From the NCBI GenBank assembly GCA_964016885.1, contig OZ024762.1, positions 25,916,001 through 25,980,000 of the forward strand: a stretch of 64,000 nt of DNA, written 5' to 3'. This document shows positions 4,318-63,985 of this stretch, piece after piece. The first letter of the stretch is position 1. Every line of letters begins with the position of its first letter. The notes below the pieces were generated by a model. That model was not told the origin of the DNA. It saw only the letters and a list, made by a program, of their open reading frames with translations, and did not search any database. The position numbers and the translations under genes were made by a program. The DNA is from Eledone cirrhosa. Lineage: Eukaryota.

Positions 4318-4992
4318 AAGTATGTATGTATACGTACATACATATATGTATACAGACGTACAGTAGCATGCATATATATATATATATACATGTATATACA
4401 TACAGGCACACATATATATATGCACGTATCAGTTTACCGAACATTTATTATAATGTTCGCTTTGTTCGTTTGTAAACAAACGGACAGCCTGAATTACGCC
4501 GTACAGTGTTCAGGCAACCACGTCACCTTTTTGTTCAACACTGACACAGGAACGATGTACTAGTTTCAAGCTTGTTAGCTATCGTCAGCACCGTATACCT
4601 TTCTGCCAGATGGTTGAACGTTCGAAAGTATATACTTTCCTTATGAAAATTAACGGCTGAGCAGCCTAATTTGCATATCGAGTGAGTTCACTCGGCCAGG
4701 CGCACCGAAAACGATAAATGGAATAGAATCAAAAGAAATTTCATTTCTCACTCTTAGTACGGCACTTACTTAAATGCAAGTATGAACACTGTACGGCGCA
4801 AATCAGGCTGTCCGTTTGTTTACAAACGAACAAAGCGAACATTATAATAAATGTTCGGTAAACTGATACGTGCATATATATATGTGTGCCTGTATGTATA
4901 TACATGTATATATATATATATATGCATGCTACTGTACGTCTGTATACATATATGTATGTACGTATACATACATACTTGCATTTAAGTAAGTG
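4318..4992. repeat. Long inverted repeat (arms of about 190 bp) enclosing the 4552 hammerhead
   Basis: 4318-4512 is the near-perfect reverse complement of 4783-4977. In addition, 4763-4784 is inverted at about 4970-4991. Confidence 0.85.
4552..4594 (-). ncRNA. Minimal type I hammerhead ribozyme motif (PLE pLTR-type)
   Basis: Minus strand: acggtg CTGACGA t-agct-aaca-agct-t GAAA ctag TA catcgt. 6-bp stem I, 4-bp stem II, palindromic stem III (ACTAGT), GUA triplet. Confidence 0.85.
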
Positions 4993-5792
4993 ACGTACTA
5001 AGAGTGAGAAATGAAATTTCGTTTCATTCTATTCCATTTATATATATATATATATATATATATATATATATTTATGTATATATATAAATATATATATATA
5101 TATATATATATATATATATATATATATATATATATATATATATATATATATATATATATATATATATACATAATATAGTAATAATAATAAATTTGAAAAC
5201 TAAAATCCAAAGAGGGCTCGATAAGGATAAATATATATCAAATATATAAGAACCGTAGAGGGTGAAAGCGGCGATTCTTTGCTTAAACTTTAATCTGTTA
5301 TTTTAATAAATATATATATATATATATTATATATATATATATATATATATATATATATATATATATATATATATATATATATATATATATATATATATAT
5401 ATATATATATATATATATATATATATATATATATGTATAAATGTATATATATATATATGTATATGTATGTATATATGTATAGATATATATATGTATATAT
5501 GTATATATATATACATATATATATATATACATATATATGCACACACACATATATACATATATATCCATATATACATACATATATAACCATAATATATATA
5601 TATATATATATATATATTATGGATATATATGTGTATATATTTATATATATATATATACTACACACATACATATATATATATCCATATATACACATATATC
5701 CATATATATATATATATAAATATATATATACATATATATATACATATACATATATATACATTTTTATTTATCTATCATATATATATATAATA

Positions 5793-6726
5793 CTAGCAGT
5801 GGTACCCGGCGTTGCACGGGATAAGGTATTTTGGAACGCGGGCCGGCAATAGACCTAAAAACTGTATGCCTGGACAATATGTAAAGAAAATAAACCGAAT
5901 ACTCTGATGGCTGGATAATCTTTAAGATTTTCCTCGATGAAGTAGGAAAAATGCAGGTTTTCACCTAATGCGGGCCCTAGGGGATAAAGAAAATGAATTT
6001 TCTTATGTGCATAATATGCCTTCAAATTCGGGATAATCAGCTAGACGTAACGCCTCCAAAAAGCCCTAAGAAGCTGAAAAAATGAAGTTTTTTTTACCTA
6101 GGCCATAAGAAAGTTGGATTTTCTTTGCTCACGGTATGAAGATGAGCCTGACTAATACATAGTTACAATTTCAATGAAATCGCTCTCACGTAACGCCTCA
6201 ACAAACCCCTAAAAATGTTAAACAACGCAGTTTTTCACCTAATGCGGGCCCTAGGAGATAAAAAAAAAAGTTGAATTATTTTATGTGCATAACACTCCCT
6301 GAAACATAAGTAATGCACATGTAAAGTTTGAAAAAAATCAGTTGGCTACTTCTCGAGTTTTAGGGATTCAAACTCACACACACACACACACACACACACA
6401 CACACACACACACACACACACACACACACACACACACCCACATCCTCAAGGAAGTGACGTAATGCAGACAGATATTATAAGGGCGCGACGTTATAAGTAT
6501 GTATCTATCTAAAAAGAGAAAGACTAAGAATTATAGAGCGAGATCGCTAAATCGCATAATGTGGTCCCTGGGGCATAGACAATTTGAAATTTGTTTACTC
6601 AGAACACTCCCTGAAAAAACAATTACATGTGTAAAGTTTGAAAACAAGCGGTTGGGTGGTTCTCGAGTCTCAGGGATTCGAACTCACACACACACAGGCA
6701 GACATCCTCAGTTTTATATATATAGA
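5793..6726 (-). mobile_element. Non-autonomous Helitron
   Basis: Minus strand begins A|TCTATATATATAAAA, contains a (GT)n tract, and ends with the hairpin CCCGTGCAACGCCGGG followed by CTAG|T. Has internal duplications. Confidence 0.8.
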
Positions 6727-7809
6727 TATATGTATGACCCTCCTAAAGTATAACAATGTATATATACATATATACACATATATACATATACACATACTTA
6801 CATATATGCATATATATATATAAACACATATACATATATACACATATATACATATATAAACACATATACATATATACATATATAAACACATATACATATA
6901 TACACATATATACATATACACATATATACATATATGCATATATATATATATACATATATACACATCTATACATATACACATATATACATATATACATATA
7001 TATATATACATATATATATATACATATATATATATATACATATATATATATATATACATATATATATATACATATACATATATATATATACATATACATA
7101 TATACATATATATATATATACATATATACACACACATATATATATATACATATATACATATATACATATATACATATATACATATACATATACATATATA
7201 CAGATCTATACATATACACATATATACATATATACATATATATGTACATATATACATATACATATATACACATATATACATATATGCATATATATATAAA
7301 CATATATACACATCTATACATATACACATATATACATATTTACATATATATATATACATATATACACATATATACATATATACATATACACATATACATA
7401 TATATACATATATACATATATATACATATATACACATCTATACATATATATACATATATACACATCTATACATATACACATATATACATATACACATATA
7501 TACATATATACATATATACATATACATATATACATATATATATATACATATATACACACACATATATACGTGTGTCTTATAAATTTCTTTATATCATTTC
7601 TTCTTTTCCTTCTCTCCTTCTTTCCTTTTATCCTCTCTTCAGATTATTCAACTTTGTCCTAAGACTATATGTCTATCACTCACCTTCAGATGATGTCCCT
7701 TCTTCACTCACACACACACACGCACACACACACACAATTCATCTTAATACTCTAAGCCTGCTCTTCTATCTTTTTCTGCCAGTCTATCATCTTGATGTAT
7801 TTGCTTTTA

Positions 7810-62041: not shown

Positions 62042-62679
62042 TGTTGGATTGTTTCTTCAACAGGATGTAATCATCCCTGCCAAAAGCCTCGTTGAAGTTA
62101 AGGTATATATAACATCAGGGCTGGAAGCAGTGGTGGATTTTCCTATAAGCTAAATAAGCTATAGCTTAGAGAAAGAGATATGTAAAATTCTGACTGCGGT
62201 GTCAAGTGGTTTCAGCCTGTGTCACACACAAGCCAAAACTGGTTGGTGCCATGGTCGGGATTTTGCATATCTCTATCTAGGGATAGAGACACGTAAAATC
62301 CAGACTATGGCATCTCCCCACGCGTTGAATACTCCCATGATTAATGGTCTCCCTGGTCTCAGCACCGCACTCCCCCCCCCCCCCCCTCTCTCTCTCTCTC
62401 TCTCTCTCTCTCTCTCTCTATATATATATATATATATATATATATATATAGGATTGAGAGAGTCACTTAGTACAGTAAGACAACCTCCCAAGTGGTGGTG
62501 GAATGAATAAAAGCACCCAGTCCATGCTATAAAGTGGTGCTGGTGATAGGAAGGGTACCCAACCAGTATATTAATGCCAAATTATGAAAACAAAATACAA
62601 ATATTATGATGATGATATATATATATATATATATATATATATATATATATATATATATATATATAGATAGATAGATAGA

Positions 62680-63431
62680 TATGTTTCTTTATTAGCCACA
62701 AGGGCACAAAAGAAGGGGACAAATACAAAGGGGGAAGTTTACATACAATAAAAACGTGTAAAATATTATCACAAATGCAATTTAAAAAGTTAGTTGATTT
62801 TCCCCAATAGAGGGAGACAGTTTATATGGGTAACACATACCCCCGAAAAAATGTGCAACCCTCATCTCCAGGAGTACGAAGAGTTTGTACTCCTTTCCTC
62901 TCCTCCTCCTTTTCCTCAACCTACAGGCTGATATAGAGAGAAAGCCCATTCACTCGGGTCATTCTCGCCACTTTCACCCACCTTTCATAAAACTTGCTGG
63001 GGTAGAGCACCTCTCTCTCCATCCTGATTTTTCTTCCAAAGAGGTATTTGTAAAAAAGAATCAGTTGTTGGCCGGAGAGAAAGGTGTCTGACCTCAGCCC
63101 TTTCAACCTTGTCCACCATACAACCTCTTTCGCCATAGCTACCACACAAAGGAAAACCGCCTCTCCTTCGTTTTTGAAGGAGGGTGGTGGTTTGATCATG
63201 ACAATGGACTCGGTGGTCAACCGGATTGGTCCCACCCGCGACAATAGTCGTTCTACATAGCCCCACAGGTCGGTAACGCCCGGGCAGTGTATGAATGCGT
63301 GCACGGCGGTTTCTTCGTCTCGCACGCACCTCTGACAGATCTTTTTTGCAGGGTCCCTGCCCGGGCGCCCATGTCTGTAGAGCTTGTCTCGAACTGGTAG
63401 AGCTCCTCGGTAGCACTGCCAGGCCAGGGAC
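62680..63431 (-). mobile_element. Tx1-like LINE 3' fragment
   Basis: ORF 62921-63325 is homologous to the Tx1 C-terminus. Tail reads aataaagaaacatatctatc. Confidence 0.88.
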
Positions 63432-63768
63432 TTTTGGAAGTATATATATATACATAGATAGATAGATATACAGGGGGTCCCTGTATATATATATATATAT
63501 ATATCATCATCATCATCATATTTGCATTCTACTCAAAGTGTGTATACATTCTTTTTTTTTGGGGGGGGGGGGGGCGGGGGGAGACACCCTGTATATATTT
63601 CTATGTGTTTATGTAGTTGTATGTATGATTGTCTGCCTGCCAGCTTTTCTGATTCCATGTATGTATGCACGTACATACATATGTACATACGTATATATGC
63701 GTATACGCGTATGATAGGATATATATATATATATGTGAGTGTGTATATATATATATATATATTTAATG

Positions 63769-63985
63769 AAATAACAGATTAAAGTTTAAGCAAAGAATCG
63801 CTGCTTTCACCCTTAACGGGATCTTCTGAAGATCCCGTTAAGGGTGAAAGCAGCGATTCTTTGCTTAAACTTTAATCTGTTATTTTAATAAATATTTGCT
63901 CAACGGTTCTTATATATTTGATATATATTTATCCTTATCGAGCCCTCTTTGGATTTTAGTATTCAAATTTATTATTATTACTATA
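63769..63985 (+). mobile_element. Fold-back pLTR-like element with hammerhead core (CTGAAGA at 63826) at the palindrome centre
   Basis: Perfect palindrome 63769-63885. CTGAAGA t-ccc-gttaa-ggg-t GAAA gcag...ttgc TT aaac. A rearranged copy of the same family is at about 5170-5310. Confidence 0.7.

Follow-up and report, generated by a model that had tools for sequence, protein, structure and literature searches.

What gave rise to the hammerhead ribozyme motifs that lie beside (TA)n tracts in a 64,000-nt stretch of the Eledone cirrhosa genome (assembly GCA_964016885.1, contig OZ024762.1, positions 25,916,001 to 25,980,000; hereafter the window)? A sequence-only reading had described them as a hidden layer of ribozyme-bearing mini-elements that mark Penelope-like elements (PLEs) and retrozymes, act as dimers, and would be masked as simple repeat. 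The PLE-type hammerhead layer at (TA)n stands in our analysis and can be sharpened: the motifs are, with high probability, the 3' ends (pseudo-long terminal repeat, or pseudo-LTR, plus tail) of about a dozen PLE families, most of them probably of the Hydra clade, that inserted into (TA)n by target-primed reverse transcription and left stubs, either heavily truncated at the 5' side or head-to-head. The retrozymes, the action as dimers in place, the masking and the newness were not supported.

Hammerhead motifs in the window

About 39% of the window consists of tandem repeats, and its GC content is 38%. A descriptor of the type I hammerhead (CUGANGA, stem II of at least 3 bp, GAAA, stem III palindromic or of at least 3 bp, UH, and stem I of at least 4 bp), run on the two strands, found eight matches, with C3 at 4588(-), 10678(-), 11072(-), 13004(+), 13430(+), 31347(-), 46151(-) and 58958(+). 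All eight have the core C3-A9, G12-A15.1 and U16.1-H17 with three helices, open at stem I. Seven of them are the complete motifs reported before, with the same left ends (4552-, 10598-, 10960-, 13425+, 31286/8-, 46094- and 58953+); the eighth, at 12998-13078(+), had been overlooked. Stem III is palindromic in six of the eight and an ordinary hairpin in 13004 and 13430, and 13004 folds straight into a three-way junction (-18.2 kcal/mol, z -3.2). The motif at 12025(-) has, as described earlier, a shortened stem I of 3 bp. Broken copies were recognized at about 4190, 12154, 35741, 46330, 46480, 47445 and 63826, and further remnants, absent from the earlier list, at 5259(+), 47727(-) and 48500(-). 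Two sites that had also been called broken hammerheads, 10238 and 53420, both of family J, lack CUGANGA and have an unpaired putative stem III, so that in their present form they are not hammerheads. The window thus holds eight complete motifs and about a dozen broken ones, roughly 21 ends in 12 families (Table 1). The local density of 125 complete motifs per Mb describes this one window, with five of the eight motifs within 9 kb, and is not a genome rate; it is about ten times the Acropora millepora average if the coral genome measures about 0.45 Gb, as we assume.

Could such motifs be chance matches in AT-rich, repeat-rich DNA, or parts of other RNAs? CUGANGA by itself occurs about 20 times in shuffled sequence, and Rfam offers no hammerhead match: nothing in the window reached a gathering score, no hammerhead family appeared at E<=10 in three of three local scans, and the best 150 of 347 window matches at E<=10 are all microsatellite or hairpin noise, so that the check with Rfam hammerhead models suggested earlier would fail. 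The complete descriptor, however, gave mean counts of only 0.04, 0.00 and 0.01 (maximum 1) in three sets of 100 dinucleotide shuffles (100-nt blocks, 500-nt blocks and whole window), the control that the sequence-only reading had called for, against the eight matches observed. The reversed window yielded none, and ten scrambled cores yielded one match in total; relaxing the descriptor by one mismatch added two matches, both poor, and one in the reversed control. The motif 13004 has a weak match to a C/D snoRNA model (17 bits, E 1.3), but that score is far under the cut-off of 49, and the motif lacks a terminal D box; no tRNA was detected in the window.

The motifs are also recovered by an independent covariance model, trained solely on 33 hammerheads of external Hydra-like elements from other organisms. 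The top seven of its 17 window matches are 13430, 13004, 4588, 10678, 46151, 63826 and 58958 (E 3e-5 to 0.09), while 31347 and 12076 have E values of 0.36 and 0.39, and 11072, whose stem II is 90 nt, is missed. In the external hammerhead alignment 7- and 8-nt stems III are misregistered, which lowers the pair counts; the alignment is uninformative on the window copies. Within family D the letters of 4588 and of the degenerate copy at 35745 differ in all three stems with pairing kept, and these apparently compensatory differences, too, argue against chance. Reads carry other stem II letters at loose ends, with pairing judged by eye, and common read alleles at 12032 and 12061, among the 40 listed of 214 variants, improve pairing. 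We consider chance or another RNA the least probable of all explanations; it is refuted for the complete motifs, and not for 10238/53420 and 47445.

A Hydra-clade element around one hammerhead

The motif at 11072 lies in an element, family A, that retains coding remnants. From its end inward, element A comprises (TA)n, a 167-nt tail, the hammerhead, a 3' UTR of about 430 nt, the C-terminus of the endonuclease, and a 5'-inverted piece of the reverse transcriptase (RT) thumb. A HMMER search with the window frame 11659-12027(+) found 591 relatives at E<=0.001. A word-based protein search with the RT fragment found no match, Pfam named none of 16 proteins (the RT fragment and 15 relatives), and a PDB sequence search with the profile of these 16 was empty. 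Because Pfam and the PDB give nothing, the Hydra clade call rests on published motifs: RWK, DKT and a CxCx5C linker are diagnostics of this clade (Craig et al. 2021, PMC8557442, section 11). RWK and DKT lie outside the window RT fragment and were read from relatives; among 26 relatives of at least 300 aa, many of them partial, DKT occurs in eight, DKG/DKA in none, RW[K/R/A] in seven, and a CxCx5-6CP linker in 13. Besides the RT thumb, a profile of these 26 detects, on the minus strand, the C-terminus of the endonuclease (11737-11567, iE 1.7e-9), but no further PLE coding sequence anywhere in the window. The endonuclease piece, which carries CxxC..E and N...CxH, lies about 430 nt upstream of hammerhead 11072, on one strand with it; this copy has lost the linker and the GIY-YIG motif proper.

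Family A therefore combines the traits by which Hydra elements are recognized: RT kinship, a C-terminal endonuclease, a hammerhead 3' of the open reading frame (ORF) and insertion into (TA)n. Judged by these sequence features, 10797-12027 is one truncated, 5'-inverted Hydra-clade PLE. Its layout resembles L1 twin priming. Reads of four runs over 10800-12240 indicate that element A is multi-copy and that other copies carry ORF beyond 12027. Summed contig depth, which is a rough measure and not a copy number, falls from 14,000-24,000 on the tail to about 1,000-1,700 on the RT thumb, as 5' truncation predicts, and by the same rough measure matches to the family B tail are much commoner still. Contig pieces of a second organism differ by about 1-2% over this interval.

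Three candidate readings of this region were rejected: that family A is a Naiad PLE (Naiad elements have an N-terminal endonuclease, DKA and no canonical hammerhead, whereas here the endonuclease is C-terminal, beside the hammerhead, and DKA occurs in 0 of 26 relatives), that 'opposite strand' joints at 12065/12184 in reads are evidence (the stretch itself has two inverted copies), and that a read pile-up at 11830 is a sign of copy number (a restriction site, GCATGC, lies at 11829).

The Hydra elements described by Craig et al. (PMC8557442) resemble those of the window in the C-terminal endonuclease with CxxC and CxH, in relatives with RWK/DKT/CxCx5C, in the hammerhead near the 3' end with a U-U closure as in 4588, 13430 and 63826, in the (TA)n target, and in inverted, 5'-truncated copies with a one-sided extension.

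Families and (TA)n tracts

The eight complete motifs represent eight sequence families with flanks that are unrelated except in B and B2; the best cross-match among 11 element segments is 15 nt (B with B2, E 0.002), and the earlier estimate of at least eight families was borne out. In seven of the eight, 22-260 nt separate the cut site from a downstream (TA)>=5, in line with the targeting of (TA)n that had been proposed; the exception is 58958, at 3434 nt. Of random unmasked positions, 28% lie within 300 nt of a (TA)>=5; p on the median is ~0.01, although the sites cluster and do not count as independent. The window thus supports a layer of minimal hammerheads of the Penelope type that is dense, comprises many families, mostly lacks ORFs and is tied to (TA)n. 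This layer would not be masked as simple repeat: Tandem Repeats Finder (TRF) masks 0 nt in seven of the eight motifs and 22 of the 49 nt of 13430. The supplement of Craig et al. (PMC8557442) gives (TA)n for nearly all Hydra families and lists a single Octopus family (Hydra-1_Obim, Octopus bimaculoides), whereas many families occur in these 64 kb; in a comparison by eye, Hydra-1_Obim matches neither the family A RT thumb nor any window hammerhead.

Nor is the layer a new phenomenon. Thousands of minimal hammerheads per genome, in several families and mostly solo from truncated PLEs, with opposite-strand pairs 100-700 bp apart, were described by Cervera and de la Pena (2014, PMC4209133). The window motifs share with these metazoan PLE hammerheads the type I core, the short or palindromic stem III, the mostly solo occurrence and the opposite-strand pairs. 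They differ in that very short stems III are found just in 58958 (2-nt) and 4588 (4-nt), the others having 6-16 nt, in the base of stem II, which in several is U-U or C-A instead of G-C, and in the long stem II inserts of two motifs.

Unrelated families F, A and B are stacked around one TA tract (10427-12253), and unrelated hammerhead ends adjoin at TA tracts also in external loci L030, L042, L051 and L066. The octamer ATGCAAAT occurs at 4676(-), 35656(+) and 46280(+), 55-90 nt upstream of D and B cores (three of the six window octamers), and is a possible promoter element of the pseudo-LTR. Hammerhead 4588 is flanked by a 202-nt inverted repeat (98%; 4311-4512 and 4783-4984), with which a second inverted pair of 68 nt (4717-4784 and 4971-5038) is interleaved.

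An alternative explanation is that the motifs are non-LTR retrozymes, which make circular RNA via double self-cleavage. Like the window families, retrozymes are non-coding, bear type I hammerheads and form many families per genome (Cervera and de la Pena 2020, PMC7229834), Acropora millepora having more than 6000 motifs that fall into 16 families; a descent from PLEs has been proposed for them (bioRxiv 10.64898/2026.07.22.740005), and the predicted fold of 13004 is that of a monomer-competent junction. However, retrozymes are head-to-tail tandem repeats with canonical ribozymes (PMC7229834), whereas the window stubs are solo or head-to-head. No tandem array in the window includes a hammerhead, no head-to-tail tandem hammerhead units were found, no complete motif is repeated on one strand, and the ends fit PLE tails with an optional extension. 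We consider the retrozyme explanation very improbable. The dimer action in place that had been assumed is not supported either: no complete motif has a same-strand partner of its own family, and two, 13004 and 13430, do not have the palindromic stem III.

Head-to-head stubs and a doubled hairpin

The arrangement of the element ends can be compared in eight head-to-head insertions, seven of which show both ends (10173, 53401, 63759, 5173, 13368, 46464 and 45991). In all seven, one arm ends before a first hairpin, and the other passes through it and is 40-55 nt longer, a pairing of long with short that would occur in 1 of 128 cases if ends were independent at even odds, although only four families contribute the seven. 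At 5173 and 13368 the inverted arm consists of the extension only, stopping in the 5' arm of the hairpin or at most 3 nt from it. This constant pairing suggests twin priming at two start sites. The extensions measure about 60-90 nt, compared with 30-40 in the Hydra PLEs of PMC8557442; a reading of the extension beyond the short end as upstream element body was dropped. Three fold-backs (10173-10281, 53398-53500 and 63759-63895) are near-perfect over 44-68 bp, and their transcripts, if made, would be long double-stranded RNA; that they might serve as a substrate for editing or small RNAs is speculation.

A hairpin of the same kind recurs among 77 external Hydra-like loci, selected by ORF from metagenome contigs and in part near-identical. 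The hammerhead descriptor matched these loci 68 times in sense, twice in antisense and never in reversed sequence, and in 25 of the 38 loci that offer room of 500 nt or more a hammerhead lies 77-524 nt after the ORF. Two loci, L031 and L040, have 15-16 nt of stem I plus core in common with families B and B2. Between the ribozyme and the ATG is a hairpin motif, GCTC, a loop of about 8-20 nt, and GAGCAC, which was found at least once in 19 of 19 upstream copies and twice in 12 of them (118 sense versus 6 antisense matches overall). Loci L008, L016, L023, L026, L027 and others carry the doubled hairpin 35-135 nt after the cut site. Twenty of the 32 external 3' copies were excluded (reference score <110, contig end, or run-through into the ORF); nine of the 12 informative ends fall 0-5 nt short of one or the other hairpin, and seven of eight reference families have an end just before a hairpin. 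In the window the motif is present in tails C, H and J (three of 11 tested, background 0.8%) and in family K, and a looser test picks up a GTTC/GAAC version in tails D and F. Family E (58958) has neither a Hydra-type tail nor a TA end; it is similar to the hammerheads with a short palindrome at non-Hydra ends nearby in L030, L051 and L066, and probably, to judge from its sequence, belongs to another PLE clade. The family B pattern was found at 0 loci in metagenome and viral contigs, and the viral contigs contain no Hydra relatives.

The common outer ends of these insertions may also be explained if families B, J, H and C were non-autonomous mini-elements that are transcribed and that a Hydra enzyme then reinserts, each as a complete fold-back unit. 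Two copies of family J, 43 kb from each other, have both outer ends in common at 93% identity; the family B tail is, by summed contig depth in two organisms, a rough measure, hundreds to thousands of times commoner than the family A RT region; and non-autonomous PLEs are known in Chlamydomonas (PMC8557442). However, fixed start sites already account for the common outer ends, the core of family J is lost, and the inner junctions, which lie in or near the ribozyme, vary among copies within families: in the orientation of the J loop, between 5173 and 63759 in H, between 13368 and 46464 in C, and in the B spacer (79 versus 121 nt). We regard such mini-elements as unlikely.

Table 1. Hammerhead motifs, element remnants and head-to-head stubs in the window.
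Feature	Position	Strand	Evidence and remarks
Complete minimal hammerhead, family D; stem III ACUAGU; cut after 4558	4552..4594	-	descriptor, covariance model E 0.0018
Complete hammerhead, family F; long stem II, stem III ACUAAUUAGU	10598..10683	-	descriptor, covariance model E 0.0022
Truncated Hydra-clade PLE (by sequence), family A	10797..12027	-	
Complete hammerhead, family A; stem III ACAAUUGU, 90-nt stem II region	10960..11076	-	descriptor
Endonuclease C-terminus, frameshift near 11560; CxxC..E and N...CxH	11487..11737	-	profile iE 1.7e-9 at 11737-11567
Inverted RT-thumb fragment, ending at conserved 'IWY'	11728..12027	+	591 relatives E<=0.001; profile iE 2e-27
Head-to-head pair, family B	12025..12253	both	12076(-) with stem I shortened at family A junction; 12154(+) without C3; short end runs into (TA)n
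Complete hammerhead, family G	12998..13078	+	descriptor, covariance model E 3.5e-4; within 500-nt insert (12834-13331) flanked by TA tracts
122-nt stub, family C: inverted extension 13368-13423, complete hammerhead 13425-13473, short end	13368..13490	+	descriptor, covariance model E 3e-5
Degenerate hammerhead end, family C	4194..4246	+	
Head-to-head pair with deletions, family C	46464..46641	both	hairpin motif at 46575 in long arm
Complete hammerhead, family B2; stem I as in B, stem III AUGCGCAU	31286..31355	-	descriptor
Head-to-head pair, family B	45991..46425	both	complete 46094-46159(-) with long end; deleted 46335(+) with short end
Complete minimal hammerhead, family E; stem III AACGUU	58953..58990	+	descriptor; without Hydra hairpin, without TA end
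Degenerate family E copy, absent from earlier list	48403..48507	-	
Fold-back, family H; 68-nt arms meet inside core at 63827	63759..63986	both	hairpin motif at 63898 in long arm
Family H stub: inverted extension, hammerhead 3' half, short end; absent from earlier list	5173..5313	+	
Fold-back, family J; without catalytic core; hairpin motif at 10287	10173..10358	both	
Second family J fold-back; 93% identical, outer ends equal, central loop in opposite orientation	53401..53577	both	
Degenerate family D copy	35644..35785	+	
Degenerate hammerhead, family I	47446..47497	-	
Degenerate hammerhead, hairpin motif and long end into (TA)n, family K; absent from earlier list	47560..47747	-	covariance model E 1.3

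Other features of the window

Decayed LINE copies, unrelated to the hammerheads, lie at 56253-58304(+), 31550-32929(+), 54839-55411 and 62684-63440(-), with coding evidence from RVT_1 (E 8e-22) and a weak zf-RVT match. A SINE-like repeat of about 190 nt, which looks like the octopus type, is abundant (524-945, 7805-9805, 14456-15544 and about 15 more places), often as tandem partial copies. Long satellite arrays occupy 25207-28218, 15579-17407, 18694-19528, 20888-24731 and 60031-61036; their types are a (CCA/CCAT)-type array of 3 kb, a 29-mer (x63), a 31-mer (x27), a 44-mer (x90) and a 72-mer (x14). A candidate coding exon of 104 nt with good splice sites at 35888-35991(+) would put the window in a long intron; it has no family match, and the Atlas gave no useful match (best 0.88).

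Discussion

How might two-ended stubs of this kind arise? In the mechanism that we propose, the GIY-YIG enzyme of the element would nick both strands of a TA tract, and from each nick cDNA synthesis would begin on uncut element RNA, a few bases 5' of either one of two conserved GCUC...GAGCAC hairpins. The template is taken to be uncut because the stub arms include sequence upstream of the cut site. Each hairpin, located downstream of the ribozyme, would position the enzyme, with one strand primed at each. Both cDNAs would stop early and be joined, often inside the ribozyme helices: two same-sense cDNAs could anneal only via self-complementary sequence, and the ribozyme would supply such sequence. 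We suggest, tentatively and as something plausible rather than favoured, that the RT-endonuclease is a dimer and that each hairpin loads one of its two subunits, so that a single RNA would prime both nicked TA strands, one per hairpin. The stubs would most likely be dead copies, with a ribozyme whose cleavage would be weak or absent unless a partner copy or the element protein were present. A single minimal motif showed no cleavage, and dimers low cleavage, in the work of Cervera and de la Pena (PMC4209133).

The closest biochemical parallel that we draw is the Poseidon element PAc of Anolis (Frangieh et al. 2024, PMC11167929). In vitro its protein nicks AT-rich DNA and extends the two strands; synthesis begins at two internal sites, which set the tail, and prefers an uncut RNA template, and the ribozyme cuts only with protein. 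Under our proposal the window elements would resemble it in having two start sites downstream of the ribozyme that define the tail, in the extension of both strands and in the uncut template. However, Poseidon PAc belongs to another clade, and its start sites are located within the ORF, in an AC-rich stem-loop, unlike the Hydra-type start sites, which would lie in a non-coding stretch before the ATG, each directly upstream of a repeated hairpin. In the open literature we found no description of the doubled hairpin, which is unmentioned in the main text of PMC8557442 and may be shown in the supplements of that paper (figures) or of PMC11167929; the open literature also gave no published description of the long-plus-short pairing of ends and no cephalopod hammerhead survey.

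Several observations weigh against the interpretation as stubs of Hydra-clade PLEs primed at two hairpins. The earlier proposal to link the families to PLE ORFs succeeded for family A, and the remaining eleven or so of about 12 families have no ORF in the window; for these ORF-less families the signs of Hydra membership, such as the hairpin, are indirect. The seven head-to-head events stem from four families and may not be independent, no fold-back stub was identified among the 77 ORF-selected external loci, and antisense hammerheads occur in one of these only (L057). Three of the 12 informative external ends misfit, lying 16, 24 and 36 nt off. Tails A and B have only the 3' half of the hairpin, and tails G, B2, E and I have no Hydra hairpin. 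Because the hairpin is invariant in the external loci, a palindromic DNA site and an RNA structure are indistinguishable, and the motif has a weak folding energy (z -3.0 to +0.6). Finally, the two start sites of Poseidon PAc showed no difference by strand (PMC11167929).

Dense, multi-family PLE hammerheads are already published, and the ribozyme finding itself is ordinary. For Octopus vulgaris, 31 recently active PLE families have been annotated in PMC13282606, the available part of which does not mention ribozymes. The window indicates far more Hydra-like PLE diversity than the single listed cephalopod family, and Rfam models miss all of it. The doubled hairpin, together with the pairing of a long with a short end in seven of seven insertions, offers a defined cis-element that bears on the choice of start sites by PLEs, on inverted copies and on the one-sided tail. 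If loading at two hairpins is true, it would explain why PLE insertions carry a tail at one end only, a long-standing observation, and would yield head-to-head stubs joined at ribozyme helices; such stubs, from a radiation of undescribed Hydra families, would litter the genome at up to one hammerhead per 8 kb.

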